From Naegleria gruberi (Eukaryota): a stretch of 64,000 nucleotides of DNA. The stretch lies in the NCBI GenBank assembly GCA_000004985.1, contig GG738855.1. The stretch is one strand, 5' to 3'. Both the position numbers and the translations under genes were made by a program. Positions 1 through 44,922 of this stretch are shown in pieces (the stretch's first letter is position 1; every line of letters begins with the position of its first letter). The notes beneath the pieces were generated by a model that ran no database searches, was not told the DNA's origin, and saw nothing but the letters and a program-made list of their open reading frames with translations.

Positions 1-2898
1 CAGGCTCTTGGTACAAAATTACCAAGAAGTAGTAGTGAGTTGAGAATTACGGAAAAGACAACATTACAACCTCTCTCACCACTTTCATTCCATGATGAAG
101 ATAACGAATTTGATGACAATAATCAACAAACTCCAGATAAAAAAGAGGAAGATAAATATCCAGAATTTAAAGTACCAGAATCGGAGTTAAAACAAACAAG
201 TGATTATTTGAAATTTGTAGGTGATGATGTAGATTTGGATAAGGAAACAGATTCAGATCAAAGTGATGAAGAATTGGATTTAACATCAAATTCTGTTGGA
301 GAAGATCCAAGATTGAGGAATGTCCACAATCTTCCTGAGGAATTCTTTTACAATCACGAAAAGCTGGGGAAAACAATGGATAGATTATTATCTATTTTTG
401 ACGAAACTCTTATTTTCAAGACTGGGCAACTAATTGAATCAAAAGATAATGGAGGAAACCATCAAGTTAATATTGGTAAAGTTATTCAACCAAACATATT
501 CTCTGAGAGTAGGAATGAGTTTGCCAAATGTTCCAAAAAAGTATCATTTCGTTTAAAGGAGATGGAGATTATTTTGAACACCAAGATTAATGATCTGAAA
601 CAAGAATTGACCATTGCAAAGAAAGAGAAGGACGTAAAAGCACTAGAGTGGAAGGAAAGATATGATAAATTGCAAAAGAGATGGCAAGATGTAATCTCTG
701 ACATGAACAGCTTACAAAAAGAAAAGGAAGAGATAAGAAAAGAAAGAGACTCACTCTATGGATTAGTTAGACTAAGTGAAACAATACCAGTTGTACCTCA
801 TCACATTCAAATGCCAACATCTGTTTCTTTAAATGCATTTACTGACGAAGTTGACAAAACCCACCCTCCAATTTCTGAAACTCCTTCACTAATGACAAGT
901 AAGGTCGAACCTGCCACTACACCAAACAGAATGACAAAAACAAATCTTTTGTCTAAGGAAATCTCTCCTAAACCCCAACGTCTGGAGATGCTTAAAGCTG
1001 TTTCCCAAAGATTGTTAACATCTATGGCGGATTCTCTCTCTTCACAAATGGCAACCATATTTCTCTATAACCCTAGGATTAACGAATTGCAAAGTTTTTG
1101 CATTGTTTGTAAATATGATTTTAACAATCCAGTATTGTATACATTAGTGGAAAATAAGAATCTAAGTAATGCAACACAATACTCGAATAATACACATATA
1201 CTGATTGGAGGACCAAAAGCATTCCCAAAGCAGATATCTGTTCCTGCAAATCAAGGAATCATTGGAGAGACCTTTGCAAAAACAACTGCTTTGAATATTT
1301 TCGATGTTCCAACATTCAAAAAGCATTACAGACAAATAGACAAAGATACTGGGCTTAAAACAAAGGTCGCAATTTCATATCCACTCATTACAAAGAAGAT
1401 GAATAATTGTTTTGGAGTTTTGGAAATTATGAATAAGACACCAAATCCAGATAATCTAGAAGAAATTGAACCTTATGACATTCAGGACGAAGCCAAAATG
1501 CATGAATATTCGACAATAATATCTGACCTTCTCGAAAGCGAAGCAGATTGCTTACCTTATTCAATTTTTGTTGGAAGAAGATCCAATACTCCCGTTGTTG
1601 CAAAAGAAAAGGATGATAAAAATACAGATCTTTCCAGGATCAATGTCACTAGGGTTTATGCACAAAATGCAATGAGAGTTTTTGAGGATTTGGAAGACTC
1701 GAGGACACCTGGAAGTCCGAGTAGCCCAGTTTCTAATCTTGCCCGTCCTACTAACGCTCTGGTTCCAAAAGATATTGAAGAGTACATTAAAAAGTTGGAA
1801 TCTTGTTGGAGGAAATCGGTGAGTGAAACAGCTCAATTCAAGAATGCTGCCACTCAATTGGAAGATCAATTAAATGACAGACAGGGGTATATCAAAAATT
1901 TGGAGAGAAAAGTTGGTGAAATGGAGAAAAATATGGAAGAAGCAAGGGATAAGATGATTTCAGACTTTAAGGAACAAAAGATTGCCAAGCAAGAGTGGAA
2001 AATTAAAGAAAATGAAATGAGAGTGGAATTGGATTTTATTAAAAAGGCTCACAATACCATTGTACAGGAACACATGTTCAGATTGAAGGAAGAAAGTATC
2101 AAGTCACTCTTACTACCTGTGAACCAGAATGAATCGAACTCTTCAAAACCTTCACCCCCACAGCCCCAACAGGAAGCTAAAAGAGATCGAGTTGAATTGC
2201 CCTATCTTGACAAGACTGTAAACCAATCGAAAAGGGTTCAAAATAATAGCACGAACAGTGGCTCCTCAAGAAAGACACCTGTAACAAAGAATGAAAGAGT
2301 CTCTATTGATTTTGCTGAGAGAAATTCTGTATACTATCCGCCAATATTTTACGAGCTTTTTTCTCAATACGCTCTCCCAACTTTGATTCTCAATAGCAAA
2401 TTTAGAATTTGGAAGTACAATGTAAGATTCCTCACTTTAATTGGTTGCAAGACTGAGCAGAACGAAATATTCCTCTCTCAAATATTGGGAATGCAATTTT
2501 CTGATATTTGTGTTGGTATTGAGGCTGATGCTCTGCCGAGACTATTGCAGTATGATGTTTTGCAAGGTTTGGGAATTGCCAAGTTGGGAAATGACAATTC
2601 AACTGATGCATTTAACTCTAATGGATCTAGGTCAGCCTCTCCAATTTTGAATAATTCAGGATTCAATACTTTAGATTTGCGATCAGACTCGAAATCTCCA
2701 ACTCAAAATCTACTTAGTAAGAAGACGTTTGTGAGAGTGACTGCCTACATCAGCAAACTAGGTCAAAATGGACAAAAGTTTTCTACCTACCAAGGAGGAT
2801 CTAAAATATCAGCCTCTCCTATCATGGATGAATCATCTGTTGGTAACAGTAATACATTAATTAAGGGACCTCTCTACAGCATTATTTTCACCAAATAA
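1..2898 (+). CDS. 5'-partial CDS, open from position 1 with the upstream part outside the window. It encodes a coiled-coil plus GAF-domain protein.
   Basis: The frame is open from nt 1, so the track 'start' at 40 is only an in-frame TTG. A heptad-rich segment (KINDLKQELTIAKKEK...) is followed by a GAF-like core (GIIGETFAKTTALNIFDV). Confidence 0.55.
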   Translation, partial: QALGTKLPRSSSELRITEKTTLQPLSPLSFHDEDNEFDDNNQQTPDKKEEDKYPEFKVPESELKQTSDYLKFVGDDVDLDKETDSDQSDEELDLTSNSVGEDPRLRNVHNLPEEFFYNHEKLGKTMDRLLSIFDETLIFKTGQLIESKDNGGNHQVNIGKVIQPNIFSESRNEFAKCSKKVSFRLKEMEIILNTKINDLKQELTIAKKEKDVKALEWKERYDKLQKRWQDVISDMNSLQKEKEEIRKERDSLYGLVRLSETIPVVPHHIQMPTSVSLNAFTDEVDKTHPPISETPSLMTSKVEPATTPNRMTKTNLLSKEISPKPQRLEMLKAVSQRLLTSMADSLSSQMATIFLYNPRINELQSFCIVCKYDFNNPVLYTLVENKNLSNATQYSNNTHILIGGPKAFPKQISVPANQGIIGETFAKTTALNIFDVPTFKKHYRQIDKDTGLKTKVAISYPLITKKMNNCFGVLEIMNKTPNPDNLEEIEPYDIQDEAKMHEYSTIISDLLESEADCLPYSIFVGRRSNTPVVAKEKDDKNTDLSRINVTRVYAQNAMRVFEDLEDSRTPGSPSSPVSNLARPTNALVPKDIEEYIKKLESCWRKSVSETAQFKNAATQLEDQLNDRQGYIKNLERKVGEMEKNMEEARDKMISDFKEQKIAKQEWKIKENEMRVELDFIKKAHNTIVQEHMFRLKEESIKSLLLPVNQNESNSSKPSPPQPQQEAKRDRVELPYLDKTVNQSKRVQNNSTNSGSSRKTPVTKNERVSIDFAERNSVYYPPIFYELFSQYALPTLILNSKFRIWKYNVRFLTLIGCKTEQNEIFLSQILGMQFSDICVGIEADALPRLLQYDVLQGLGIAKLGNDNSTDAFNSNGSRSASPILNNSGFNTLDLRSDSKSPTQNLLSKKTFVRVTAYISKLGQNGQKFSTYQGGSKISASPIMDESSVGNSNTLIKGPLYSIIFTK

Positions 2899-2996: not shown

Positions 2997-5813
2997 TTGG
3001 TTTGCCACACAATGACCGAACATGATCATCATGAAGAAGAGAACAAACATGCTACTAGTTTACCGACAGGTTCCATAGAATTGGATGAAGTCATAACAAC
3101 AATTTCAACGACAAATAATCAATTGCAACAAACTTCTAATAACCATTCCGAAAATTCATCATCAAATCATTCTTCAACAACCTCTACAACAACTCGGAAT
3201 CACCCTAACCTTCCGGAAATAATAATTCCAAAGAATGAAGATATTATCGTAGCCATTTCCAAACATCATACCTCTCCAAATTCTCACCATATTCCCAATA
3301 ATAATACATCTACAGATATTGTCTTTGAGGATAATGGTGAATCCAATACTAGTTTTATGAATACAGAAGATGATATAATTTCAGATTCAACACAAGAGGA
3401 AAACCTCTATGATGATATTGTTCTATCAAATCCGACCCAACCAAACTCTGCGCGATCCAATAGTAACAATAGTACGGCAACAACAACAAGTAGTAACCAA
3501 CCCTCTCCTCTTCAACAATTAAACATTCAGCCCCATCATCAAATACAGGATGGTAGAGTTTCTCCCTCTGCAAATCCCTATCCGACAAGTTCTAATTCAT
3601 CAATTAAACAACAACATTCGGTAATCACGACTCCATCTCCTCCTTCGATTCCTTTTTCATCAGCTGCTACAAGACACCATGTAAATAATAATACACCAAC
3701 ATCATCACTACACAAACATACCACCACTACACCAACCGTAAATATATCAAGACATTATAGTGGCACCAGTAACAAATCTGATATTATCAGTATTGAATCA
3801 TCTTACTCTGAAACTTCGAGTTACAAAGCTAAAAGACATAGAGAAAGGAATATACAATACCAAACCAATACTGTATCTGAAAGGTCAAACAATTCTCATA
3901 GACAATCCAAATTACCTCCCTCTCTCATTTCTGATTTTACACCAAATAGAAACTCTCTAGTAAGGTTTCAAGAAGATAATATCATTGATAATAATTTACA
4001 TCATCAAATTTCCAAGAGACTCACATCCTCTCCAAGGGCTGAAGATGATCAAAGAATGATTGCAAGCAATTTCTTCACCAATGCCTCAGTGCCTAATCTT
4101 TTATCAATTGGAAGTAATATTTTCTTTTCTGGAAACAAGACCTCTACTGTCACAAGTAATAATGTAGACAAGTATAAGGATACTACAAATGTTCTAAGCT
4201 TACCAGATAATATTATGCTGCACATTTTCTCATTTGTTGGAATTCAATATGCAGAGGATAACAATTACAACATGCTCTGTAAGAGGTGGTATGTCTTGTT
4301 GTGCTTGGATTATTTGTGGAAGGAGAGATACTTTAATTTTTTCAATTCGAGATCAATTCAAGCAAATCCAATGCTTCTTTCATATTCTAAAGATTTTGAT
4401 TTTCCTCAAAGAAGCAAATTTAGATATAATTTAATCTTATTGAGAAAGAAGAAGCACCTCCTCAAGCAACGTCTTCTATCTCAAAACAGACACGAAAAAT
4501 CAAGAAGATACTTCCTATTCAACTCATTTGTATTGAATCCATTAGTTGCAATAATATGTTTCATGATTTCCACTGTAGTGTTTGGCCTACAAGAGGATGG
4601 TGTAATTCCAAAGAATGATAGAAATACTTTACTCTTTGTTTTTTTGCCTTTCTTCACATCATTCCTGTTTTCCATTGTTGGAAATGTTTCACTTGGTTTG
4701 AGAGAGACCATTTTCTGCAAGAATGGATTTTATGACATTTCTCACTTTATCCATTTTCTTGTTATTGTACTCGGACAGTACACATTCTATTTTTGCTCTT
4801 TACTGTTTGGTTTAAAGTGGTTTTGGTTTAAAACCTCTTTATGGACTTCCTTCTCCATTCCATGCCTTTGTATCTATATCATGTTTGTTGGATTTTGCTT
4901 TGCATATATTTTGCATAAGTATGTCAAAAGAAGAATTCAATTCCAAGATATGAGAAAGGATAGACCCAACCTGAGTGTAAATAGTCCTGAATACTTTTAT
5001 TTTGCTTATAGACTGAGATCTCATAAGAGAAGAGAATTCTACTCAAAAGCCAAATATATTGCACAACCATACGATGATGATTTTATAGAGTTGAGTGAAG
5101 ATGAAGATATGGGAAATGATACAGATGAGGATCTTGAGGATACTTTTGATGACTCTACTGCATTTGATGATGAAACTGAAACAACATCAAGAAAAACTGA
5201 TGAAATGGTTTCAACACCAAAGACCAGGGAAAGAAAGAAAGAGACAGCCAAGCTTTCTGTCTTTAAAGAGTTTGATAATCAAATGCATATTCAAGATATT
5301 ACTGACATATCCACACTTACCATTATTGTATTTATATTTCTCATACTATTTATGGTAGGATTGGAGATGATTCTGGTACCCCTCAAAATTGATGGGATTA
5401 TTGTATCTTCTTGGAGTTCTGTGTTTGTACCTCTATGGATAGTAATGTTCATTCTTTTATGTGGATTGCCGTCGTGGATAACATGGGAAATTTGCACCAA
5501 AACCAATTTAGACAAGAAAACAATAAGCACTTCAGTGGATGTCATTACTGAAGAATTTTCAAAGGCAACCACCAAAAATAAGAATGACCCAGAAAGATAC
5601 CAACGAGCATATTATTCGTTTGTTGCATGTCCATGGTGTTTTACCATTCCATTGTTTGTTGCTTTGGTTGTTCTTGCAGCCACTCTTGATGGAGCCAACA
5701 TTCCATATGTTGTTTCCTGTGCATTATTTGCATTTTGTGAGTTTGTAATTGGTGGCCTTTACTTGATGATTGTTATACCTTATACTCTAGCACACAACGT
5801 TTGGGATGTTTGA
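2997..5813 (+). CDS. F-box-like motif followed by a multi-pass transmembrane region; hypothetical membrane protein with an N-terminal S/T/N-rich low-complexity region
   Basis: Single 938-aa ORF. It has an LPDNIMLHIFSFVG F-box-like motif and at least 8 hydrophobic segments in the C-terminal half. Confidence 0.5.
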   Translation: MVCHTMTEHDHHEEENKHATSLPTGSIELDEVITTISTTNNQLQQTSNNHSENSSSNHSSTTSTTTRNHPNLPEIIIPKNEDIIVAISKHHTSPNSHHIPNNNTSTDIVFEDNGESNTSFMNTEDDIISDSTQEENLYDDIVLSNPTQPNSARSNSNNSTATTTSSNQPSPLQQLNIQPHHQIQDGRVSPSANPYPTSSNSSIKQQHSVITTPSPPSIPFSSAATRHHVNNNTPTSSLHKHTTTTPTVNISRHYSGTSNKSDIISIESSYSETSSYKAKRHRERNIQYQTNTVSERSNNSHRQSKLPPSLISDFTPNRNSLVRFQEDNIIDNNLHHQISKRLTSSPRAEDDQRMIASNFFTNASVPNLLSIGSNIFFSGNKTSTVTSNNVDKYKDTTNVLSLPDNIMLHIFSFVGIQYAEDNNYNMLCKRWYVLLCLDYLWKERYFNFFNSRSIQANPMLLSYSKDFDFPQRSKFRYNLILLRKKKHLLKQRLLSQNRHEKSRRYFLFNSFVLNPLVAIICFMISTVVFGLQEDGVIPKNDRNTLLFVFLPFFTSFLFSIVGNVSLGLRETIFCKNGFYDISHFIHFLVIVLGQYTFYFCSLLFGLKWFWFKTSLWTSFSIPCLCIYIMFVGFCFAYILHKYVKRRIQFQDMRKDRPNLSVNSPEYFYFAYRLRSHKRREFYSKAKYIAQPYDDDFIELSEDEDMGNDTDEDLEDTFDDSTAFDDETETTSRKTDEMVSTPKTRERKKETAKLSVFKEFDNQMHIQDITDISTLTIIVFIFLILFMVGLEMILVPLKIDGIIVSSWSSVFVPLWIVMFILLCGLPSWITWEICTKTNLDKKTISTSVDVITEEFSKATTKNKNDPERYQRAYYSFVACPWCFTIPLFVALVVLAATLDGANIPYVVSCALFAFCEFVIGGLYLMIVIPYTLAHNVWDV

Positions 5814-6041
5814 GATTCTTTATTTGCCAAATCCAAATGAAATTCAAAATATCCTCCGTCAAAATAAATTTAAAAATGACAAGTGAATCTCAATTTAAGT
5901 AAGAGAGAATAAAGGGATTGAAATCATTGAATTTGTAATGCTCGCCCTTAGTTTAGAGTCATACAGACAGTGCGCGTATGTTATAATGTTTCACCTCTTA
6001 AACATGCAATATTCAAATTTAAACAAATCAAATAGAGAAAG

Positions 6042-7446
6042 TTGAAAAAAATTAATTCAAACATCATGAATACTCAACACCTTTCTAATGAGCCATTCCA
6101 TAACACAATACCCTACCTGGAGCTTCTAGGCGTAACTGAATCTCTGGCCAGCAATTCAACAAGTAGCAGCAAAGGTATCAATTTTACTTCTGGCAAAATA
6201 CCTGAAGCTGCTGAAAACATTGGAAGTCTGGTCAATTCTGGCTTCTTCATATTGACTTTAGTTCCTGTTTTTATCATCCTAATTGCCTTTTATTATAAAC
6301 AAAGACAAGAGATGAAACGTAACCAGAGATTACTTTTCATTCTCGTGGCCATCCTAATTGTGGTGGAGGTTGTTGGGTTGTGCATTAGAGTTGTCTACAA
6401 TGCAACTGCACTTCACATGAACCAAATCGATTGGCAATCACTGCCTGACTTGCCTAGTTACAGAATTGTATTGTGGATTTCAGGTGTCTTGGAAAATGCT
6501 ATTGTCTATTCAGTCGTTGTAGCCATCACACTCATTATGGCCTTCGTTCAAGATATTTTGTAAGTTTATCACATTTATTCATGTTGAAATATTAAAGTTA
6601 TTTAGTTTGACAACTGCTGCAGCTGCTGGTTCCATGTCTAAAAAAGTTTACAGAAGATTACGTTACTCACTCATTGTTTTCTCAGTTGTGGCTTCCATCA
6701 TCTTGGGTCTTGTCATTGTAATTAATGCAACACTCAATTTACTAGTGAAAATGTCTATTATTGATAAGAATGCTGGTATTCCACTCCAAGTAGTTCTTTT
6801 AATTGTTTATTTCCTCACAAGTGTCCTCACACTCATTGTATTTTCAATTGTGGCAATCAGATTAATTGGTATTGTGAAAAAAACTTCAAGCAACATTTCC
6901 AGTGCAGTTTCTCCAACTCAAAAGAAGAAACAAAAAAAGGATGTGCCTTATATGAAGATTGTTGGCTTAATGTTTGGTATGATTATCAGTTCCTTCTTTC
7001 AAATCTTGTCAGCAATTATTGGCTTCCTCACCTCTTCATTTGCAGGATATTTACACATTTTGGACTATTTCTGCCAAGCTGTTGGTATTCTAATCTTTGT
7101 CGTTTTCGTTTTATTGTTGTACAATCCATTGTGGAGACGTGAAGTTGCTGAAGATCAACAACGTGCTTTGGATGATACTCAAACAGATACCTCTTCTCAC
7201 ACTCATCCAAATGCAACAAGAAAGAGTTTGAAAATTGAAACTACTTCCAAAATGCAACAATTAGATGATTTGGAAATGACACCTGTCTCACCAATGGTGC
7301 AATCTCCAAAGGCAGAGACAATCACAACAATGAGTGGAGCTGGAGAGGGTTCATCACTAGCTAATTCAATCGTTAATGGAGAATCTCAAGATGAAAACTC
7401 TCATTCTTTGATGGGAAATACTGAAACACCTCAATCTGTTGTTTAA
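6042..7446 (+). CDS. Seven-transmembrane receptor-like protein, join(6042..6559,6606..7446) with a 46-nt intron
   Basis: Track ORFs 6042..6563 and 6607..7446 join in frame. The GTAAGT donor overlaps the apparent stop, and TTTAG is the acceptor. The spliced product has 7 predicted TM helices and an acidic, S/T-rich tail. Confidence 0.55.
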
Positions 7447-7614: not shown

Positions 7615-8811
7615 TTAAGCAAGACGTTCAATAACAACTGCTGAAGCACCACCACCACCATTACAAATGGAAGCACAACCAATTTCTTGATTTCTATGTT
7701 GGAGAGCACTGATCAAAGTACAGAGAATTCTAGCACCTGAACAACCAATTGGGTGACCCAATGAAACAGCACCACCAAAGATGTTTACATTACTAACATC
7801 CAATCCAAGAATCTTCATATTAGCAAGGGCAACAACAGAGAAAGCTTCATTAACTTCCCACAAATCAACATCACCAATATTAACACCAGCATGTCTCAAA
7901 GCAATTGGAACAGCAGCAGAAGGAGCAGTTGGGAAATCAATTGGAGCCTTTTCAGCATCACCATAACCCAAAATTCTAGCAATTGGCTTCAAACCAGCAT
8001 TCTTGGCCTTTTGTTCACTCATCAAAACTAAAGCAGCACCACCATCAGACAGTGTGGAAGCATTGGCAGCGGTGACAGTACCATCCTTCATAAAAACTGG
8101 CTTGAGTTGTGGAACCTTATCAAAGTTAATGTTAGTATATTCTTCATCTTTTTGGAGATAGCTGACAACATCACCCTTCTTCTTTGTTGGAAGAGCAATC
8201 GAGAACATTTCATTAGCCATATATCCCTTTTCATTAGCTTCACGAGCTCTATTATATGATTCAATTGCATAGTTATCTTGATCTTCACGAGTAATACCAA
8301 ATGATTTGGCAGTATGTTCAGCACACCAACCCATATGTTCATTACTGAAGGCATCAGTCAAACCATCCTTCAAAATTGAGTCAACCAATTTACCATCACC
8401 TAATCTGTGACCAGATCTTCCGTGTGGAACATAATATGGTGCATTACTCATAGATTCAAAACCACCAGCAACAACACAATTATGGATTCCTAATTCAATT
8501 GATTGAGTACCATACATGACAGCCTTCATACCAGAAGCACACATCTTGTTGAGTGTTGTACAAACGACACTATCTGGAAGACCAGCATGAATACAAGCTT
8601 GGCGAGCTGGAGCTTGACCCAAATTAGCAGAAATAACATTGCCCATAATTACTTCTTGTACTTCGGAGAGTGTAACACCTGATTTTTGAAGGGCAGAACG
8701 AATGGCCAATGAACCTAATTTTGGTGCATCAAATCCAGAGAGTTTACCAAGGAAGGAACCGATTGGTGTTCTTTGAGCGGCAACAATAACAGCACGAGTC
8801 TTTAAAGTCAT
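7615..8811 (-). CDS. ACAT: acetyl-CoA acetyltransferase (thiolase II)
   Basis: Strong full-length thiolase similarity (VIVAAQRTPIGSFLG, NKMCASGMKAV, NEAFS, GHPIGCSGARI, CNGGGGASA). The first ATG is at 8811 (MTLKTRAV), so the track ORF start at 8925 is upstream read-through. Confidence 0.9.
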   Translation of the reverse strand: MTLKTRAVIVAAQRTPIGSFLGKLSGFDAPKLGSLAIRSALQKSGVTLSEVQEVIMGNVISANLGQAPARQACIHAGLPDSVVCTTLNKMCASGMKAVMYGTQSIELGIHNCVVAGGFESMSNAPYYVPHGRSGHRLGDGKLVDSILKDGLTDAFSNEHMGWCAEHTAKSFGITREDQDNYAIESYNRAREANEKGYMANEMFSIALPTKKKGDVVSYLQKDEEYTNINFDKVPQLKPVFMKDGTVTAANASTLSDGGAALVLMSEQKAKNAGLKPIARILGYGDAEKAPIDFPTAPSAAVPIALRHAGVNIGDVDLWEVNEAFSVVALANMKILGLDVSNVNIFGGAVSLGHPIGCSGARILCTLISALQHRNQEIGCASICNGGGGASAVVIERLA

Positions 8812-8948: not shown

Positions 8949-9911
8949 CTAATTGAAAATCTTCCAAATGCCTCTGATTGACTTTTGGTGAACAGCATAT
9001 GGAACCTCAAGAAGACCTCTCAACATTTTCATAATATCTAACCCCATTGTTAAACCGATAATACCAGCAATAGAACCCAATAAACCTGGAATATCTGTCG
9101 ATAGGACTTCATCAATAACTTGAACATCAAGCGTTCCATAAGAGACAGAGATAATAATATCTGCAGAACTGGCATTCGATATTTTGATTTGTGACAAGGT
9201 TGGCTCCCACAGTGTAGTTGAATTCCCATCAAGAAAGTTCTTTGTCACCTTATTCAGAGTATACATATTATCCTTGTATGGAGAAGCAAATTGTGTCTCT
9301 GCAAAAATGTCAGCTTCAGCAGCTATTTCATGGAATGAAATCTGAGCACCATATTTCCCTGCAGTAGGAGCTTTCATTTTAAAGTTCAATGATATTGATC
9401 CTCCAAATCCTGCAGTTGATGTTGTCTTAATACTCTTAATTTCATTATTAAGAAAATAACAATTAAATTTCAGTCCAGAAGTTACAATCTCCTTCTTTTG
9501 ATTTGTAATGGTTGTTGAAGACTTTACTCCAGAGCTGGAGTAAGAATAAGCTCCAGTAAAAGTAATATCACAATAATCACAAGCTTCGGAAGGAGGCTTG
9601 GCATTATAATTACAAATGGTCATCCCAGGAAATTCCATCTTATCCTGAGTGACATACGAGATTGTTGTTGTAGGCTGGTTTTTACTCTTCTCATAGGTAT
9701 CCGATACGTCATAAATATACCAGCCACTAAATCCTAGAAAAATCAACCAACCAATAATTGCGAAAATATCCCTTACTGCAAATTTCCATTTCTTTTTAGG
9801 AGCAGCTGGAGCAGAAATTTGTATACCTATTTTCTCTCCAACCTTTTCAACTCCTTCTACAAGAGTATGCACGGGAACAGTTGAATTCATTTTTTTAAGC
9901 ATGTAGTTCAT
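8949..9911 (-). CDS. ENaC/ASIC/degenerin-family two-TM channel-like protein, paralogue A
   Basis: It has an N-terminal TM helix followed by the FPGMTICNYN motif (compare FPAVTICN of ENaC/ASIC), a roughly 230-aa extracellular-type loop, and a C-terminal TM2 LLGSIAGIIGLTMGLDIMKM (compare [20 protein letters not shown]). Confidence 0.65.
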   Translation of the reverse strand: MNYMLKKMNSTVPVHTLVEGVEKVGEKIGIQISAPAAPKKKWKFAVRDIFAIIGWLIFLGFSGWYIYDVSDTYEKSKNQPTTTISYVTQDKMEFPGMTICNYNAKPPSEACDYCDITFTGAYSYSSSGVKSSTTITNQKKEIVTSGLKFNCYFLNNEIKSIKTTSTAGFGGSISLNFKMKAPTAGKYGAQISFHEIAAEADIFAETQFASPYKDNMYTLNKVTKNFLDGNSTTLWEPTLSQIKISNASSADIIISVSYGTLDVQVIDEVLSTDIPGLLGSIAGIIGLTMGLDIMKMLRGLLEVPYAVHQKSIRGIWKIFN

Positions 9912-10035
9912 ATTGTATTTGGGGTGTTTCTACAGAGAGTGTATGAACTTGAACATAAAAGCGGGAGATGAATGGCTTCTCGATTATGTTTATTAAATTC
10001 ATAATGTATTATATTACATTGTTGGTTATTAAACC

Positions 10036-10977
10036 TTAATTCAAAGCTTCATAGACCAGTCTGTGTTGTTTAGTTTTGACTGCTTCGAATATAATAAACC
10101 CAACTCTTATCATTTTTAGGAGATCCAGGCCGAACAATACACCCAACATACCAGCAATTTCTCCCATCAATTCAGTCCAAGTTTTAGACTCGAATTCATT
10201 TCTAGTTGTAATGTCCAATTTACCATAACCAACAGAAACCACAACTGTTCCATCAGAATAGTTAATTAATTTTACAGAAGACTTCACTGCCTTATAGAGT
10301 GTGTTATCAGTTCTATACTCGACTGATGTCTTTAATCTCTTAATGTTCTCTAAAGAGAGAGTGAAAAAGTTATCATCTCCAACTGATGCAAAATTGAACT
10401 TGGCATGGTCATTATCGACAGAAACACCTTCATCATAAGTATTGAAAAATACATAAAGACCAGCTCTTTTAAGACTATTAATCTTTGAGAAATCATCAAG
10501 TGTAAACTCAAAAGCAATTGATCCACCATATCCACTTTGATTTGATTTGTATTTTGATTTTCCATCTCCATTAAATGTAAAACACTGATACGTGTAGACA
10601 GTACCTGCCTGTGTTACTGTAATTTTTGATGATGAAAGAGTTTCAGTGCAACTCCCTCCAGGAATTGTGCATCCAGTAAAACTTAGTGCTGTATCTGGTA
10701 TTGATGAACAAAATGTTGTCTTGGGAAAGTTCAATGATGAATAAGAAGTGACATCCACTGATACTGGAGGATGGGTCTGAAGATAAGAGTAGCCAGATAT
10801 AACACTCCACATATAAACTCCCAACATTGCAATACTTCCTAGCCATCCGAAAATTACAAGAAATTCTCCATAAGTGTATCCATATTTCTTCTCAAGCTCA
10901 TCTCTTGCTCCTTCTCCACTTCCATCATCGGAATCTTCTTCTGCTCCTAAAACATCAACAGGTTGATCGGTGGTCAT
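10036..10977 (-). CDS. ENaC/ASIC/degenerin-family channel-like protein, paralogue B (tandem duplicate of 8949..9911)
   Basis: Same architecture as paralogue A, with NFPKTTFCSS after TM1, GGSIAFEF, SVGYGKLDI, and TM2 LMGEIAGMLGVLFGLDLLKM. It is colinear with paralogue A. Confidence 0.65.
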   Translation of the reverse strand: MTTDQPVDVLGAEEDSDDGSGEGARDELEKKYGYTYGEFLVIFGWLGSIAMLGVYMWSVISGYSYLQTHPPVSVDVTSYSSLNFPKTTFCSSIPDTALSFTGCTIPGGSCTETLSSSKITVTQAGTVYTYQCFTFNGDGKSKYKSNQSGYGGSIAFEFTLDDFSKINSLKRAGLYVFFNTYDEGVSVDNDHAKFNFASVGDDNFFTLSLENIKRLKTSVEYRTDNTLYKAVKSSVKLINYSDGTVVVSVGYGKLDITTRNEFESKTWTELMGEIAGMLGVLFGLDLLKMIRVGFIIFEAVKTKQHRLVYEALN

Positions 10978-11282: not shown

Positions 11283-11972
11283 ATGTTTGGTGAAGGAAGA
11301 AAAGAAAAAATGTCATCAAGCAACAACACTCATTCATCATCATCTTCCCTTCTCTTGGATATTGAAGACAATTTGAACAAAAAGAAAGAAAATTCAAATC
11401 CTATTAGTAAACCATCCTTTCTCAAATTATCACAGCAACAAGATGGCACAAATGAAGGAATGCCTAGATTTGCTCCTTCCGAGCTCTTGTCCAGACTACA
11501 AAGCTTTTTACCACAAATTAAAGAAGCAAACGAAAAGCTAGAAAGTGGTGAAGTTGAAGGCTTTTCGGATTGTGTTGAAATTATTGAGAATGATGATGAG
11601 GAGGAACAAGATGGTGCTCAACTTCAAGAGGAAAATTATAATGATGAAGAAGAATCCGAACATAAACCCTATGTGGAGATGAATGTAGTATTGGGAGTAT
11701 TAGAACAAAAACAAAAAACAAGCCTAATTACAGATATAGATGGACCAACAGAGGATGAACAAAAATTGGAAGAAAAAGATGAAGTTGTAAATTTGAGAAT
11801 TGGAAAGGATTTTACTCCACAAGAAAGCAAAAATATTGAACAGGATATGGTGGCATATATGAATATTATGAATTCTCTTCTCGGTTCTTCATCAGCATTG
11901 AAAAGAAAACGAGTAGAGGACAACAGTGATAGTGGCAGTAGTGGTGATAGTAGTGACAGTGATCAAGATTAG
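11283..11972 (+). CDS. hypothetical acidic, Ser-rich protein
   Basis: 229-aa ORF with an acidic low-complexity composition and a C-terminal DSGSSGDSSDSDQD tail. No recognisable domain. Confidence 0.35.
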   Translation: MFGEGRKEKMSSSNNTHSSSSSLLLDIEDNLNKKKENSNPISKPSFLKLSQQQDGTNEGMPRFAPSELLSRLQSFLPQIKEANEKLESGEVEGFSDCVEIIENDDEEEQDGAQLQEENYNDEEESEHKPYVEMNVVLGVLEQKQKTSLITDIDGPTEDEQKLEEKDEVVNLRIGKDFTPQESKNIEQDMVAYMNIMNSLLGSSSALKRKRVEDNSDSGSSGDSSDSDQD

Positions 11973-13420
11973 AACATTACATTTGCTACATATTTACGTT
12001 TCAAGTATTCAGCCATGGTTCTATCCTCTTTTGCTAATTCTGTTTGACCCAATGCCTCATAGGCTTCGCATCTATCTCTGAAAGCAGGGAAGAAGGTATT
12101 ATCAATATTAATTGCTTCAGTATTGTCATTTACACATTTCCAATACTCCTTCTTTCTGAAATATGACAGACCTCTCTTATTAAGTGCATTGACCTTGTAT
12201 TGTTTCAATATTTGTGCATTTGCTGGATTCTTCTTTAAACAAGTGTCAATATATTCCATACAGTATGCGAAATGAGAACGTGCCATTTCATGATCCTCAT
12301 ACTTTGTGTAAGCAATACCTAATTTCACCAAAATATCCACATAAACTGCATTAAAATCAATATTATTTCCTTTGGCAACACAATCCTTCACAAATAAATT
12401 AAAGTGATCAATAAATCTATTGTAGAATGAAAGAGCAACTTGATCATTACCCAATTTTGAGTGACAATCACCAGCATTCATCTCTGCATGGTATTCAGTT
12501 GGATCTATCTTTAAGATCTTATCATAACAACTGACTGCCTCTTTCAGATAATTTTCTCTTTCTTCAACTCGTGTGATTGGCAAAATTTTGGATAATTCTT
12601 CCAAAAAGATACCCTTAGCATAGAGTAGTCCACAATGTGTGTCGTCCTTTTCAATTGCTCCAGAAACGAGCTTGATTCCCTCCTTCAACATGTCAGTTTT
12701 TTGACTGAGGTCATACCTCTTATCTTGTGAAATTGATAACAAGTTGTAAGATAATTTTTCAATAATAGTTGAGGCCAAAACCGATCTATTTTCACACAAT
12801 TCCAAAGATTTTTCGAGAATTTGATTGGCTTCATTAATATTTCCAGTAGCTACATAACAATCATGTAAATTTACACAAATGTCAGAAATTTCATATTTTG
12901 TCAAAGATTCAGTTGGGATCTTTTCACATTGTTCCAGGTAGAATGATCTTAATTCCTCAAATAATGGCTTTGATTTTTCATATTCTCCCAAAGAAAAGAA
13001 CATTGTGCCAAGAAGTTCTTTCAGCTTGTAAATACTGACTTGGTAATGTTCATCACTTTCATCAATTTCTTCCGAAAAAGTAACAATTTTCTTTTCCAAA
13101 TACTTGATGGCATCCTTGTTATCTAAAACCCAAAATTCCTCTGCATTCTTAGCAGCATCACTAATCTTTTTCGAAAGTATTGATTCGTGAAATGGTGCCT
13201 GTATGAGGTGTGATGGTTTTTCTGGTTTTAAATTTGGATTTGTATCGATGGCCTTGTTGGACAAACCTGGCTTTTGATTTAATACCACACCACCATGATG
13301 AAGTGAGAAAGTTTTCAATTGTACTCTAGTATTTCCGAAAAATGTCAATGATGAAGAAGTTTTATAAAGACGATTGAGTCTGAGAATGCTTTGTCCAATC
13401 TTTTTCATTTTTTCTTTCAA
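11969..13420 (-). CDS. TPR-like helical repeat protein
   Basis: 483-aa ORF with repeated roughly 34-aa amphipathic helices (A..Y/F..G pattern). Its stop overlaps the stop of the convergent upstream gene by 4 nt. Confidence 0.45.
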   Translation of the reverse strand: MKEKMKKIGQSILRLNRLYKTSSSLTFFGNTRVQLKTFSLHHGGVVLNQKPGLSNKAIDTNPNLKPEKPSHLIQAPFHESILSKKISDAAKNAEEFWVLDNKDAIKYLEKKIVTFSEEIDESDEHYQVSIYKLKELLGTMFFSLGEYEKSKPLFEELRSFYLEQCEKIPTESLTKYEISDICVNLHDCYVATGNINEANQILEKSLELCENRSVLASTIIEKLSYNLLSISQDKRYDLSQKTDMLKEGIKLVSGAIEKDDTHCGLLYAKGIFLEELSKILPITRVEERENYLKEAVSCYDKILKIDPTEYHAEMNAGDCHSKLGNDQVALSFYNRFIDHFNLFVKDCVAKGNNIDFNAVYVDILVKLGIAYTKYEDHEMARSHFAYCMEYIDTCLKKNPANAQILKQYKVNALNKRGLSYFRKKEYWKCVNDNTEAINIDNTFFPAFRDRCEAYEALGQTELAKEDRTMAEYLKRKYVANVMF

Positions 13421-13465: not shown

Positions 13466-14650
13466 ATGTCCTTTCTCTCATCACAATATCAACCAACATC
13501 TGATAATAATTCATCGGCATCAAGCCGATCATCAATTTCCATGTTTCAGCCAACATTCTTTGAAATAATGACACAGGAAAGAATGATTTCTGGATTAAAA
13601 TCAGCGCTCCGATACATCTTGTCAATGGCTGCACAACGCAATTTTAGATATTTGAACATTTTGAAATATTATGATGAATTATTTGGAATACTTCAACTTG
13701 TGATCGAGAGACATTTTCTCTCAAATTTTGACTCTTCTTTTGCCGAGCATTTATTTGGATTGAAACGAGTGGATGCAAATCAATTTACACCTGATAATCA
13801 ATCAAAACCTTCATTTCTTACCAGCAAACAGAGAGCACAAAGTCTTGCATATCTTGTCTTTGTTCCTTATATAAAGGATAAATTGGAAAATTTATATGTT
13901 GATTTGAGAAGAGAGCATGCCTTGTCAGATATTAGAAATTCTACAGAATTGGATAATTCAATTATTCCTTCGGAAATGCTGCAAGAGGAGTCAAGTAATA
14001 TGGGATATCATAGATTTTCAAAAATTGTTAGGACATACTTTATGAAATTATGGCCATATATTAGTACTGCCTATGAGGGCTCTCATTTCTTTTTCATGTT
14101 CCTCTATCTGTTAAAGAGAGATTTCAAATATCATAATCCTTTCATGTATTTGATTGGACTATGTCTTAAGAGATTATCACCATCAGAACATGTACAACAT
14201 TTGAGTGCTATGAATATCAAGAGAAATAATCTCATTGAATCTTTCAAAAAATTGGGGGGAAATTTATTTGGATCTCTTTTTGGTTACATTATCAAATTTT
14301 TATACTCAATTTCTGATTACTCAACTCATTTACTCTTAGCAATAGCCTTCCTTTTCAAATTCTTTGAATGGTATTTCAATAATGAATCATCACTTCTCAC
14401 AAAGGGAAATATCATCATTCCACCTCCACCTTCACAACCAGAGAGAACTCCAGGAGGTCTAGAAATACCAACAAACCCAAGATTATGTCCATTGTGTAAG
14501 AAGGAAAGAAGAAATGCCACTTTATTGACAGTTTCTGGCTTTGTATTCTGTTACAAGTGTATTCAAAATCATTTGATAAGTCATTCAACCTGTCCAATCA
14601 CACTCTCTCCCTGTAACAAATCACATCTTGTAAAGATATTTGAAAATTAG
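13466..14650 (+). CDS. PEX12: peroxin PEX12 (RING-type peroxisomal import ubiquitin ligase subunit)
   Basis: The N-terminus matches the PEX12 Pex2_Pex12 domain (PTFFEIMTQERMISGLKSALRYI...FAEHLFGLKRV). The C-terminus is a degenerate RING (CPLCKKER...CYKCIQNH...CP). Confidence 0.8.
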   Translation: MSFLSSQYQPTSDNNSSASSRSSISMFQPTFFEIMTQERMISGLKSALRYILSMAAQRNFRYLNILKYYDELFGILQLVIERHFLSNFDSSFAEHLFGLKRVDANQFTPDNQSKPSFLTSKQRAQSLAYLVFVPYIKDKLENLYVDLRREHALSDIRNSTELDNSIIPSEMLQEESSNMGYHRFSKIVRTYFMKLWPYISTAYEGSHFFFMFLYLLKRDFKYHNPFMYLIGLCLKRLSPSEHVQHLSAMNIKRNNLIESFKKLGGNLFGSLFGYIIKFLYSISDYSTHLLLAIAFLFKFFEWYFNNESSLLTKGNIIIPPPPSQPERTPGGLEIPTNPRLCPLCKKERRNATLLTVSGFVFCYKCIQNHLISHSTCPITLSPCNKSHLVKIFEN

Positions 14651-20784: not shown

Positions 20785-22906
20785 TTATTTATTGAGAGTG
20801 AATTTCTTTCGTTGTTGCTGAGAGTAAGCTAGTGTATTATACATGTTCTTGATTTCTGCTAATTGACGTTTCAATTGATCATTTTCTTCAAGTAATCGTT
20901 TCTGTTCTTCTTCTAATTCTGATTGTTGTGCTTCTGGGTCTAATCTTGGTGGAGTTCTTTGTCTAATAGATGGTAGCTCAAAGCTCGAAGATAATTGTGA
21001 AGATTCTCCTAGTTTATCCTTGAGTGCAGTTATGTGTTGTTCATAATTTCTTTTCTGTGTTTCAATAATTTCTTGGTAGGTCCTGATTTCCTCTTCCTTA
21101 GATCGTTTACTATGCTCAATTGTGAGTTTAAGAGCTTCATTTTCATCTCTGAGGAGCATTATTTCTTCCTGGAGTTGTGATGTTGAAGGATAATCGAACG
21201 TATTTCTTTCTCCTTTCAAGAATTGACATTTTCTTTCCAGTTCTGAAGTTTGCAATCGTTCTTTCATCAGTATTTCATTAGTCTCGTTCAGCTTTTGCTC
21301 CAGCTCTGTTATTTTAGATCCAGTAACTTTTTTAAGTTCTTTCAACTTTTCCAATTCTATAGTTGTAATAGTGAGTTTTAATCTTAATTCCTCATCCGGT
21401 GTGGTATTGGAAATTGGCTGTTTGAGATCGAAACTAGTATTTTGAAATTGTAGAGTGTCTAGTGCTCTTCTACTTGTGCTTTGAAGCTCATTTTTCAAAT
21501 ATTTGATGATTTCATCCTTTTGTTCAATGTCTTTGCCCTATAGAAAATATTAAGCAAAGCTTCATTAAAAGTACTACCTACCAGCCTTTTGATTTCTTGC
21601 TCTAATTGTGGAGCAGATGGTATAGATGCTCCAGATTTTGGCCTTCTTTTCTTTAAATTGTCAATTTCTGCTTTCAACAAATCGACAAGCTTGTTGTCAT
21701 TCTCGGATTTCTCAATCATTCTGGCCTGTTTGGCCTTAATCTCATTGTAGGTCTTTTCTAAAATTTTGTTTCTAGCCACAGATGCATCCAACTTATTCTT
21801 GACAGCTTTGATTTCTTCCACTTTTTCAGTAATTTCTTTTTTCAAATCGACAACTTCATTCCTTCTTTCTTGTTCAAGTTTTTCAATTGCTTTTCTTTGC
21901 CTCTCATCCACAGAAACAGTAGATAGTGTTGAAATGGAGCTGTTTTCATTGGCAGAGACTGATTGAGGAGATATACTATTAATTGTTGATGAGAGAGGAC
22001 TTGGAATATTTGAAATTGTAGGAGAAGAGATTGTTTGTGATTCTAACTTCTTTTGGAGATCCTTGACCTTATTTTTAAGTAAATAAATTTGTTGAGCTCT
22101 TCCTCTAAACCCGTCGCTATTGGTAAGAAGTGAATCAATCGACAAGTCATCACCAACTTCTTTTTGAATAAGAGCTCTCAGTTTCAAATTTTCATTCTTG
22201 TGCTTTTCTCCTTGCTCTCTAAGCATTTTCATTCGTTTCTCATAAGTTGCAGCCCTTTCTTTAAATTGTTTAAGTAATTTCATTGTTTCATCCTCTCCGT
22301 CCTCTTCTTCCACAGATCCTGAATTGGTTTCATTTAAGTTTTCCCTCACCTTAGAACTAAAATGTCTCAGATTGTTATTATTTGTGACTGTTATTGATCG
22401 ACTCGATTGTTGTAATTGTTGTACCTGTTGAGTAAGAACTGCAACTTTAGACTTTTCCTTATTCAATTTTACAATTATATTCTTATTTTTTTTTGCCAGC
22501 TCAATGAGCTTTTTGTCTCTCAAGTCTATTAATTCCTCCGAATCTTGATCATGAAGTCATTAAATTGAATCTTGTTGTAATATTACATACCATCCAAAAA
22601 CAAAGCTTCTACTTCTCGGTTTGTATTCCTCAACTCTTCCACAACTTCTTTTAAATCTCGTATTTCACTCTCCTTTGCTTCAAGCTCCTCTAGGAGAGAT
22701 TTATTTACATCTGGAGAGCCTTCCATTGCAAGTTTATCCAACTTGGCATAGGATGATGGTTTGTTGTTTCCTAAATCCTCAATATTTGGAGGAGTTTCGT
22801 CTCCGCTACTATTCTCTTCATCCAATTCCTTTTTTTTGATGATCTCCTTTGATTTTAATTCTTGTTTTGATGACGATTTTTGTAGTTGTTGTTTACTTGT
22901 CGACAT
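20785..22906 (-). CDS. long coiled-coil protein, complement(join(20785..21537,21582..22543,22591..22906))
   Basis: Three track ORFs join in frame through a 44-nt intron (GTAGGT donor) and a 47-nt intron (GTATGT donor). The product is continuous heptad-repeat sequence. Confidence 0.6.
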
Positions 22907-23005: not shown

Positions 23006-25585
23006 TTACATGATCGAACAACACTTAGCCTCCTTTTCTTGGACTGGTTTTCCTGGGTTCTTATTTGGGAGTGGTGTTGGTGGCATGAAAATAGGAGATA
23101 GTTGAATATCATCTGTGTGAAGAGTGTCATTAACATTCTTCGTTTGATTATTCTGTTTAGTGAGTGGAGGAGAGTTGGACTCAGAAGCATTAAGGTTGAC
23201 TGCAAAAATATTCTCATCAGTTTTGAGAGCACTGTTACTGGAGGAGGGTTTTTCCTTGACTGGAGTTTGTGGAGGAGATAGCTGGTATGGTGTGATGTAC
23301 TTTTCATTTTCTGGACCTTTCAAATCCTTGATATGAAAAAGAGAAAAGAATGTAGACTGAAGGGATGGATCCATTGGGTGTGGCTCCAACTTTTGTTTTC
23401 TATCAGCAAAAGGTACTGGTAAATAGAGATTTTCTCGTAATTTCCACTCATATTTGGCTCCTCTTTCGAATGGTATAGTTCTATTGTTCTGCACAACATC
23501 AATATTGTAATAGAAGGATTTGGACAGCTCATCTCTTTCCAACAAATTAGATCCTCCTCCCACGTTTACAAATGAATAGTAGAATGCAAATATTTTGAAT
23601 AATGATTGATTTCTTGAAGGGTCATTTTCAAAAATCTTGTAAAACTCTACAAAACAAGGCACATCTTCCTCAACCCAATCAAGCTCAGTAAGCTTTTTGT
23701 CAAGGAAAAGAGAAATACTGACATTGAGTATAAGTCTATAAGAATTATGGTGTGAGGAAGATATTATATCATCAACGTATCTGGTAACATCAGTTTTTCC
23801 AAAAAATGCTATTGAATGTTGCTCAATAGATCTCTTTTCAATAGCCTTGTTAAAGCTCATATCTATTACTTCCATAACAAAGTCTCGAGCTATAACTATG
23901 GAATCATAGGAGGGCTTGTGTTGTGGACTGGTTGGAGGAGAATAGAAAACGTCAGAAATATATCCAACTGGTGTTGGAGTACTAGACTTGGACTCACCAC
24001 TCATTTTAGAGAATGAAGATGATCGTGTTCTTTCCTTGTAGTTTTCCCTTCTCCACTGCATTAGTTTCCAATTTTTTGGTTGGCTTCTATCGTGCACTTC
24101 AAAAGAAGAAAAATCATTGTCATACATTTCAACACTCTCCGCAGTACTTATTTCACTAAACGTATCAGTGACATCATATTGATCTAGCTCTTGTTTAGTT
24201 TCAGGCAAAGAAGTTGCAACTGTAAGAGGACTGTTTGGCCGAGATGTGGTGAAACTTTTAGAATTTCCAGTTGTGTTGGGCCTAGAAGGTTTCTTCTTTG
24301 CTTTCATGTCCCCTATTGTTGGAGTTTTCACTCTTTGTATTTGAGTATTTACAGGAACTCTTTCCACACTCTTCCTTACATCAGTTACTATGGATGTAAG
24401 TGATGATATACTTCCTCTTCGAGGTGAATTTTGGGCTGATGGTGGTGGAAACATTGTGGAATTTGTGGGTATGGCATCTTTAAGACTTGGTTTCTTAACA
24501 GCAGTTGAACCAATACTACCACTCGATGTATTGGCTGTACTTGTCTTATCCCACTGTTGCTTCTTCTTTTCTGAGGGTTCTTTACATTTAATTTCATCGG
24601 TTGGATTGAAAAATTGAGGCTTATATCCCATATCCTTAATTGGTTTTGAAGGTTCCGATCTCCTTAATGGATCAACGGCATTTGTTTTTGTTTTTGGTTT
24701 AGATTTTGTTATTATTACTGGTTGAGGGGGTGGAGGTTGGTTAATTGTTTCAATTGTGGCTTGTTTCTTTGCTTTTTCATCATTTACATATTTTGACTCG
24801 TCTTCAAGAACTGGGGAAGCTTGGAAAAACTCATCCTCAGAAGAATCTCCAATTAAAAAGTCGTCTTCCTCCTTTTTTTCTACTTTGGAGCCGGGCACTG
24901 AGAATGTTATTTGAGTTTTTGGATTGCCTTGAATGTTAGGAGTAAAAAGCCACTCTCCACTTTCGTCTTCTTGAGCCTCGCTCAGTAATTTTGAGGCAGC
25001 CATCAATCTAATGTTATGAGCAACAGATTTTCTGTCACTAATATTGGGTAAAACCTTATCCTCTGTTAGAAGGTCTTTTTGAGATCCAGGTTTAAGGTTG
25101 AGTAGTTTTGCAGAATTTCCTAACGGAGAAGGGTAATGAATATACTTCTCATTAATTAAATAATTATTTACACCTTTCTTTTCAATTAGATTTCCACTTG
25201 GAGTTTCATATTTGATGTCTGGCATTAGAGAATCCATTTTTGTAATATAATATGCTTTGTCCCTCTCCTTTTTTACCATTATCTCCTTTTCAAAGAATTC
25301 CCCATCCATAAAACGTTTCTCTTCATCACCCATTGAGAGGTTTGCTCTCGGCGTTAGAATTGTTGGAGAAAGCAAAATGTCACTCATTTCAAGAGGTGAT
25401 AATTTACTTCCTGTTGGATCAAAGAAAGATCCTCCTAAAGATCCATTCAAATCATCAAATTCATCATCCAAAATACTTGTTTGTTTGAGCATGGTAAGAT
25501 TGGTATCCATCTCCCGCTGCATCTCCTCAATGGATTGTTGATTATCAAACAAATCCAACTCGCTATTGTCCAACAAACTAGACAT
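23006..25585 (-). CDS. large S/T/P-rich hypothetical protein with a conserved-looking C-terminal globular region
   Basis: 859-aa single ORF with an ATG start (MSSLLDNSELDLFD). It has proline/serine-rich low complexity. The C-terminal roughly 250 aa are compositionally normal. Confidence 0.45.
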   Translation of the reverse strand: MSSLLDNSELDLFDNQQSIEEMQREMDTNLTMLKQTSILDDEFDDLNGSLGGSFFDPTGSKLSPLEMSDILLSPTILTPRANLSMGDEEKRFMDGEFFEKEIMVKKERDKAYYITKMDSLMPDIKYETPSGNLIEKKGVNNYLINEKYIHYPSPLGNSAKLLNLKPGSQKDLLTEDKVLPNISDRKSVAHNIRLMAASKLLSEAQEDESGEWLFTPNIQGNPKTQITFSVPGSKVEKKEEDDFLIGDSSEDEFFQASPVLEDESKYVNDEKAKKQATIETINQPPPPQPVIITKSKPKTKTNAVDPLRRSEPSKPIKDMGYKPQFFNPTDEIKCKEPSEKKKQQWDKTSTANTSSGSIGSTAVKKPSLKDAIPTNSTMFPPPSAQNSPRRGSISSLTSIVTDVRKSVERVPVNTQIQRVKTPTIGDMKAKKKPSRPNTTGNSKSFTTSRPNSPLTVATSLPETKQELDQYDVTDTFSEISTAESVEMYDNDFSSFEVHDRSQPKNWKLMQWRRENYKERTRSSSFSKMSGESKSSTPTPVGYISDVFYSPPTSPQHKPSYDSIVIARDFVMEVIDMSFNKAIEKRSIEQHSIAFFGKTDVTRYVDDIISSSHHNSYRLILNVSISLFLDKKLTELDWVEEDVPCFVEFYKIFENDPSRNQSLFKIFAFYYSFVNVGGGSNLLERDELSKSFYYNIDVVQNNRTIPFERGAKYEWKLRENLYLPVPFADRKQKLEPHPMDPSLQSTFFSLFHIKDLKGPENEKYITPYQLSPPQTPVKEKPSSSNSALKTDENIFAVNLNASESNSPPLTKQNNQTKNVNDTLHTDDIQLSPIFMPPTPLPNKNPGKPVQEKEAKCCSIM

Positions 25586-44850: not shown

Positions 44851-44922
44851 TGGCTATTGAGGGGATTGAACCCTCGACCTTCTCCTTACGAGAGAGAAGC
44901 TCTACCACTGAGCTAAACAGCC
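44851..44922 (-). tRNA. tRNA-Thr(CGU): tRNA-Thr (anticodon CGU)
   Basis: The reverse complement folds as a cloverleaf. The acceptor pairs GGCTGTT with AATAGCC. The D-arm is GCTC-AGTGGTA-GAGC. The anticodon loop is CTCGTAA. The T-arm is GAGGG-TTCAATC-CCCTC. A T-run lies 8 nt downstream. Confidence 0.85.

Follow-up and report, generated by a model that had tools for sequence, protein, structure and literature searches.

Two adjacent genes of Naegleria gruberi encode a divergent minimal variant of the DEG/ENaC superfamily

Two neighbouring minus-strand open-reading frames (ORFs), A and B, in a stretch of 64,000 nucleotides from Naegleria gruberi (contig GG738855.1 of assembly GCA_000004985.1; this whole stretch is referred to below as the window) encode proteins of 320 and 313 amino acids (aa), respectively, which by both sequence profile and fold are a divergent, minimal variant of the DEG/ENaC superfamily. 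An earlier note, made from the letters of the window alone, had described the two as a tandem pair of ENaC/ASIC/degenerin-like channel genes with two transmembrane (TM) segments each, and both ORFs lie exactly at the coordinates that it gave. Its assignment to the superfamily stands, while the closer likeness to ENaC, ASIC, and degenerins fails at the HG motif, the G-x-S filter, and the peripheral domains. The assignment to family and fold, taken by itself, is in our view close to certain, and the reading as a whole, in which A and B are short-form DEG/ENaC proteins with the corresponding fold and act as channel subunits, is probable.

Superfamily membership and the short-form clade

The ASC model of Pfam (PF00858), with which the earlier note had proposed to check its claim, was the sole credible Pfam match for the two proteins, scoring 40 bits with A and 27.4 bits with B, both above the gathering score of 23.6, and each of the 30 aligned short-form members likewise matched this model and no competing one. 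Single sequences compared by phmmer with those of the PDB reached ASIC1/2/5 at E ~0.02, a weak result but one that falls on the diagnostic stretches. A profile of the 30 sequences found the PDB sequences of ASIC5 (1.9e-10), FaNaC (5e-9), ASIC1 (1.7e-8), and ENaC-gamma (1.4e-6), and hhalign aligned this short-form profile with a canonical profile of 18 long DEG/ENaC sequences at 99.7% probability (E 1.2e-25) over 269 colinear columns running from TM1 to TM2. Translation confirmed the post-TM1 motifs that had been read as FPGMTICN in A and FPKTTFCS in B, the first of which aligns to FPAVTLCN of ASIC1/2/5. HMMER aligned LLGSIAGIIGLTMGLDIM with the ASIC TM2 stretch, placing G-L-D, which is present in both proteins as had been claimed, on G-A-S. 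All 30 aligned sequences retain C100 and C151, the equivalent cysteines are invariant in canonical sequences too, and a disulfide probably connects the cysteine of the post-TM1 motif with that of the C-x-x-F-N block in the beta-ball. G279 of A, the small residue of LLG-D before TM2, is retained by at least 90% of the members and lies at what we take, by ASIC numbering, to be the degenerin (Deg) position.

An exhaustive HMMER profile search of 1.84 billion representative proteins returned 314 relatives at E <= 1e-3, of which 91 reach E <= 1e-10. The approximately 100 top-ranked matches are mostly proteins of 230-400 aa that align in one full-length stretch, whereas canonical channels of 450-700 aa appear only from about E 1e-8 and align in three pieces. 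All named short-form members are from Naegleria, with at least eight paralogues in N. gruberi, members in N. fowleri, and one in N. lovaniensis; the remaining members are about 90 environmental clusters on short contigs. Word-indexed homologue searches with A and B returned only the two proteins themselves and one environmental relative. Motif-plus-tblastn scans of bacterial and archaeal genomes (185,579) and of IMG/VR found no relatives, which, given the insensitivity of the method, is weak evidence of absence. One N. gruberi protein of 1563 aa (D2VVE1, NAEGRDRAFT_81362) has three stretches that match the short-form profile, the best at its C-terminus (1372-1563), and is either a real protein, made by fusion or repetition, or a product of merging in the gene model.

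At the level of sequence, the short forms are a distinct clade defined by a short ectodomain, a missing HG motif, and G-L-D followed by Lys/Arg. Short forms have 178-225 aa between the post-TM1 motif and TM2, compared to 275-569 aa in canonical sequences, and their median number of ectodomain cysteines is 6 (4 in A) compared to 14. The HG motif that precedes TM1, with the canonical consensus T-x-H-G-x-P, was found in 10 of 15 canonical sequences and in none of 34 short forms, and A and B lack it. Of 76 short forms, 62 have G[LIVM]D as the filter triplet where canonical channels have GxS. The family consensus is FPAVTICNWN ... F-x-C-Y-x-F-N-N-D ... T-G-Y-x-G-S ... L-x-G-D-x-A-G-M-x-G-x-L-M-G-L-D-x-L-K-x-x-R-G, followed by a nearly invariant C-terminal ...F-N(G). 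Nearly all short forms, including A (8952-8984) and B (10039-10071), end in a tail of the form ...K-x5-[WYF]-x2-[FL]-N(-G), the terminal Asn of which is kept in at least 90% of them, and canonical DEG/ENaC sequences have no such motif; it may serve in trafficking or gating. A block of four cysteines (C-x-x-C ... C ... C) also lies behind the second strand in most short forms; A has only its first pair (C111 and C114, 9570-9581) and B only its second (C103 and C110, 10648-10671), a complementary loss that could matter if the two proteins co-assemble.

Predicted architecture and pore

By hydropathy each protein has two TM segments, in A at about residues 46-68 and 274-309 and in B at about 36-60 and 267-302, and the models from AlphaFold2 (AF2), run with the 30-sequence family alignment, have helices at these places, in agreement with the two segments originally reported for each protein. 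The intervening loop, put at about 230 aa in the earlier note, measures ~200-205 aa. Both models have a mean predicted local distance difference test score (pLDDT) of 86.2, with predicted template modelling scores (pTM) of 0.71 for A and 0.73 for B, and both contain a long TM1 helix (46-78 in A, 36-68 in B), twelve beta strands, and a short C-terminal helix. No ectodomain helix of four or more residues is present in A, and B has a single one of four residues. Each chain would run from a short cytoplasmic N-terminus through TM1, the ectodomain, and TM2 to a conserved tail of ~10 residues. As modelled, the ectodomain of ~200 aa is all-beta and corresponds to the palm plus beta-ball core of ASIC/ENaC; the three large insertions of canonical sequences, the finger, thumb, and knuckle, have no short-form counterpart in the hhalign alignment. 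Of the structure that had been anticipated, an ASIC palm and thumb with two flanking TM helices, the palm and the helices are thus present and the thumb is absent. TM2 breaks into two helices exactly at G-L in both models (274-289 and 292-309 in A, 267-282 and 285-302 in B).

Compared to ASIC1 and ASIC5 (BASIC; PDB 6AVE, 2QTS, 9MKY), which have ~500 aa and 14 ectodomain cysteines, the short form has ~315 aa and 4-6 cysteines, lacks the HG motif, and carries G-L-D in place of G-A-S; since it has no finger, thumb, or knuckle, it also has no ASIC acidic pocket. Likewise, the GRIP/protease-cleavage region, thumb, and finger of ENaC alpha/beta/gamma/delta (PDB 6WTH, 6BQN, 9BLR) are missing, as is the G/S-x-S filter, and the short-form sequences give no sign of amiloride sensitivity or Na+ selectivity. 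PAC, a chloride channel activated by protons, also called TMEM206 or ASOR (PDB 7JNA, 7SQG, 7JI3), differs from the short form in having the PF15122 domain, and the TM2 of the short form is of the DEG/ENaC type. The helix-turn-helix insertion described for PAC (PMC7904269) is also missing from the short form.

Conservation within the family is strongest in TM2, which carries a Gly ladder and G-L-D-x-x-K. In the HMMER alignments, G-A-S-I-L-T-V-L-E-L-F-D of ASIC maps onto G-L-D-I-M-K-M-L-R-G-L-L of A, whereby the filter Ser is replaced by Asp, the Gly is retained (G290, invariant), and T448, E451, and D454 of ASIC correspond to K295, R298, and Leu. At least 90% of the members share K295, and many have R298. 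In ASICs, T448 and E451 lie on the lower-pore face, and E451 and D454 contribute to Na+ selectivity. The conserved Gly ladder together with the predicted break at the position of the GAS belt argue that TM2 would still line the pore.

We propose that A and B would assemble as trimers with TM2 around a central pore, and possibly as heteromers, given the recurrence of adjacent gene pairs in the family. Three Asp residues ringing the constriction, with Lys/Arg one and two helical turns below them, would give a selectivity unlike that of ENaC and ASIC for Na+, and the pore may be poorly selective or divalent-interacting for cations. As there is no acidic pocket and there are no protease-sensitive or peptide-binding peripheral domains, gating would act through the beta core and the wrist. 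Possible triggers are ions or protons on the outer side, as in PAC, or tension in the membrane, and these would match the life of an amoeba in fresh water that responds to changes in its ionic and osmotic surroundings. We lean to a cation pore, possibly a divalent-interacting one, because of the Asp ring, and we would put a cation pore with altered selectivity only slightly short of an even chance; an anion pore is a live alternative.

Relation to PAC and competing readings

In Foldseek, PAC/ASOR (8.6e-14) and ASIC (1.9e-13) ranked equally as matches to the predicted short-form structure, with template modelling scores (TM-scores) of 0.60-0.63 for ASIC normalised to the query, where its coverage is better, and 0.60-0.64 for PAC normalised to the target, where the size match is better. 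Both the two-TM topology of PAC and a compact fold with a 12-strand beta-domain of PAC size are present. The short-form profile matches PAC sequences at 5e-7 to 2.7e-5, and hhalign against a PAC alignment of 13 species, for which the human query is 100% identical to chain A of 7JNA, gave 88% probability (E 2.9e-6) over 258 colinear columns, compared to 2.3% for the canonical DEG/ENaC profile. The score of 51.1 was well above the maximum of 24.2 in 40 local shuffles, which keep hydrophobic segments in place, and above the 18.8-19.6 of reversed profiles. When the alignment was dissected, the signal came from TM1 and beta1 only, ~58 residues that scored 32.1 against a shuffled maximum of 16.7, and the beta12/TM2 block and the ectodomain core scored at the shuffled level. 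PF15122 gave no match with A or B at E <= 10, nor with the 30 members at E <= 0.01, and identity in the structural alignments is 9-11% with PAC and 13-19% with DEG/ENaC.

These results bear on a different reading, in which A and B are PAC/TMEM206-like, that is, trimeric anion channels with a short ectodomain, in which Lys/Arg of TM2b sets anion selectivity and proton gating acts on the beta core. In PAC, K319 sets anion selectivity, and the near-universal K295 and common R298 at the positions of ASIC T448 and E451, the first place of PAC/ASOR in Foldseek at the same size (TM-score 0.62-0.64 normalised to PAC length), the profile match, and the hhalign match above its controls all speak for such a protein. 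The missing PF15122 match, the confinement of the signal to TM1 and beta1, the lower structural-alignment identity, and a TM2 sequence that is clearly of the DEG/ENaC type (GxxAGxxGxxxG) speak against it, as does the conserved Asp at the constriction, which does not fit a simple anion pore; we consider this reading unlikely. We find it improbable that the proteins keep the fold and are not ion channels at all, serving instead as surface receptors, adhesion proteins, or regulatory subunits. The loss of the HG motif and the G-x-S filter and the unusually polar TM2b (K, R, E) would agree with such a role, but the strongest conservation in the family, that of the Gly ladder and G-L-D-x-x-K, is hard to explain unless TM2 packs round a pore, and the predicted break between TM2a and TM2b mirrors the GAS-belt geometry of ASIC. 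The reading of A and B as short-form DEG/ENaC channel subunits nonetheless has points against it. The HG motif, G-x-S filter, thumb, and finger, by which canonical function is defined and explained, are all absent from the sequences, and for this reason channel properties are not transferable from ASIC/ENaC. Lys and Arg beneath the Asp are equally compatible with an anion and a cation pore, and the deep nodes of a rough neighbour-joining (NJ) tree, which bear on the relation of the short forms to the metazoan clades, are weak, with bootstrap support of 33-58.

Detection of PAC by the short-form profile and not by the canonical profile is the behaviour expected of an intermediate sequence. The short form thus appears to be a partial intermediate between DEG/ENaC and PAC, and the sequence evidence for common ancestry is suggestive, not conclusive. 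A further step, that the short forms are a surviving minimal ancestral design of two TM segments and a bare 12-strand beta-domain from which both DEG/ENaC and PAC descend, is a tentative idea that we hold to be rather doubtful. The resemblance between ASIC and PAC has been proposed as 'structural convergence', and PAC has been described as vertebrate-conserved (PMC7904269); the best 120 matches listed for human PAC are almost all named vertebrate proteins. If the ancestral design were true, this resemblance would be divergence, with finger, thumb, and knuckle added in animal DEG/ENaC channels, and the superfamily would be an old eukaryotic invention, present in Discoba, and not an animal one.

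Genomic setting and significance

A and B lie head-to-tail beside a thiolase gene, as the earlier note had claimed, and they are old paralogues, aligning from end to end at 27% identity (E 4e-30) and at 26% on trimmed columns. They fall into different subgroups of the NJ tree, where the sole close relative of B is an environmental sequence, and this placement together with the low identity points to an old duplication; a recent one is rejected by the identity of 26-27%. A second adjacent pair in N. gruberi (NAEGRDRAFT_64420 and 64421) also has its members in different NJ subgroups. In N. fowleri, VFQX01000053.1 carries a head-to-tail pair, FDP41_006660 and 006661 (4772-5875(+) and 6001-7264(+), ~125 bp apart), which is 49% identical and more recent than A/B. 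It is flanked by a hybrid histidine kinase and a pseudouridine synthase with no adjoining thiolase, indicating that the pairing recurs and the synteny does not. An environmental pair on a 13.3-kb contig of metagenome 3300002220 is divergent, with genes at 5018-5926(-) and 6001-7017(+) separated by 75 bp, and consists of a relative of A (338 aa, 35% identity) and a 302-aa member from different NJ subgroups. That adjacent pairs encode heteromeric partners is only a suggestion from this arrangement.

Both genes are native nuclear genes of the heterolobosean amoeboflagellate N. gruberi and are under constraint. The contig of a second N. gruberi isolate is 99.0% identical across 6.3 kb, retains the order B-A-thiolase, and has both ORFs intact. 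The codon differences between the isolates, summed over A and B, are 10 synonymous and 2 non-synonymous (binomial P = 3.8e-5 for two or fewer non-synonymous in 12, assuming that 75% of random changes are non-synonymous), which indicates purifying selection at the codon level. Contamination and pseudogene status were rejected on the basis of the housekeeping neighbours, the uniform GC content, and the intact, identical arrangement in the second isolate. A recent horizontal acquisition from an animal, or contamination of the assembly, would agree with the overwhelmingly metazoan distribution of the family, and lateral transfer has been raised as an option for non-metazoan members (PMC10507113). 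However, the genes sit among native genes at a uniform GC of ~0.35 in an arrangement shared by both isolates, N. gruberi has at least eight divergent paralogues with further members in two other Naegleria species, and the clade has shared traits of its own and is not nested within canonical sequences in the NJ tree, so that we give this origin hardly any credence. Recent transfer is effectively refuted; an ancient transfer of the short forms is conceivable.

B is identical to the N. gruberi protein listed in Table 1 and A to a 313-aa N. gruberi model that begins at Met8; A, B, and the thiolase are all on one 613-kb N. gruberi scaffold. The ORF of A starts seven codons before the annotated start (9888-9911, MNYMLKK-MNSTVPV...), and gene callers in both isolates picked Met8; the N-terminus is disordered in the AF2 model, and translation may start at the first Met or at Met8. 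The 124 bp between the two genes presumably contain the 3' end of B and the promoter of A. Downstream of A, the start codon of the thiolase (acetyl-CoA acetyltransferase, EFC47328) follows after 137 bp; upstream of B, at 305 bp, lies a divergently transcribed NOPCHAP1-like gene. The housekeeping neighbours (F-box, thiolase, NOPCHAP1, TPR, and Pex2/12 RING peroxin) lie in a window whose GC content is about 34-35% throughout. The NOPCHAP1-like ORF (11283-11972(+)) and the convergent TPR ORF (11969-13420(-)) share bases 11969-11972 at their stops in the ORF list, indicating a compact locus, and the thiolase (7615-8811(-)) and the Pex2/Pex12-type RING peroxin (13466-14650(+)) are within 6 kb of each other. 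Elsewhere in the window are several long ORFs of 279-952 aa with no Pfam match at E <= 1e-4 (40-2898(+), 23006-25585(-), 21495-22523(-), and 6607-7446(+)) and a single tRNA-Thr(CGT) at 44851-44922(-).

Table 1 Coordinates of genes A and B and their features in the window
Feature	Position	Strand	Details
Gene A, short-form DEG/ENaC-like subunit	8949..9911	-	ORF 320 aa; public model 313 aa from Met8 (9888-9890)
Gene B, short-form DEG/ENaC-like subunit	10036..10977	-	313 aa; EFC47330 / XP_002680074 / UniProt D2V788, NAEGRDRAFT_64711
B-A spacer, B stop codon to first ATG of A	9912..10035	.	124 bp, from coordinates
A TM1, VRDIFAIIGWLIFLGFSGWYIYD, residues 46-68	9708..9776	-	Hydropathy; AF2 helix 46-78; W55 invariant in family
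A post-TM1 motif FPGMTICN, residues 94-101	9609..9632	-	Includes invariant C100; ASIC1/2/5 have FPAVTLCN in the alignment
A all-beta ectodomain, residues 79-273	9093..9677	-	12 strands, no helices of >=4 residues, 4 Cys; AF2
A C-Y-F-L-N block, within ectodomain	9447-9461	-	
A TM2, residues 274-309	8985..9092	-	TM2a 274-289, TM2b 292-309; AF2, HMMER to ASIC TM2
A G290-L291-D292 at TM2 break, GAS-belt position	9036-9044	-	Followed by K295, R298
A C-terminal tail KSIRGIWKIFN	8952..8984	-	Family-wide ...F-N end; N320 in >=90% of 30 members; AF2 helix 313-319
B TM1, residues 36-60	10798..10872	-	Hydropathy; AF2 helix 36-68
B degenerate post-TM1 motif FPKTTFCS, residues 84-91	10705..10728	-	Translation, family alignment
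B TM2, residues 267-302	10072..10179	-	AF2 helices 267-282, 285-302
B G283-L284-D285 at TM2 break	10123-10131	-	Followed by K288, R291

A and B are publicly named only 'predicted protein', and a precomputed PF00858 match is already attached to both. An abstract by Studer et al. from 2011 reportedly placed ENaC/degenerin also in N. gruberi and discussed vertical inheritance and lateral transfer. Given this annotation and that publication, it is not new that N. gruberi has the family. What we have not found described in the searchable literature are how the short form is built, its G-L-D-x-x-K pore motif, how large the clade is, the recurrence of gene pairs, and the local link to PAC; a search of the open literature found no paper on Naegleria DEG/ENaC, on Naegleria amiloride physiology, or on a link between PAC and DEG/ENaC through unicellular homologues. 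Two papers report non-metazoan DEG/ENaC members only from heterokonts (Cafeteria) and the filasterean-related Tunicaraptor (PMC10507113, PMC9822975), with one alveolate candidate, Symbiodinium, and no candidates from Discoba when BLAST was used with animal queries (PMC10507113); none were reported from pathogenic protozoa (PMC3681921). The homologues of Cafeteria roenbergensis, Tunicaraptor unikontum, and Symbiodinium (PMC10507113, PMC9822975) are likewise PF00858-type proteins of unicellular eukaryotes and pose the same choice between vertical descent with losses and lateral transfer. BLAST searches with animal sequences had brought them to light, and they group with ASIC/ENaC. The Naegleria proteins are too divergent for such queries, as their phmmer E of ~0.02 against the PDB ASICs illustrates.

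DEG/ENaC is usually called an animal family, and Naegleria, a member of Discoba and very distant from animals, has a whole multigene family of it, with short forms also conserved in the pathogen N. fowleri. A and B are near the smallest possible version of the fold. In this naturally pared-down system one can ask what the beta core and TM2 achieve unaided, how selectivity arises from a G-L-D filter beside Lys/Arg, and whether the cation-selective DEG/ENaC channels have an ancestor in common with the anion-selective PAC. This variant is amenable to experiment and has a bearing on how two channel families arose.

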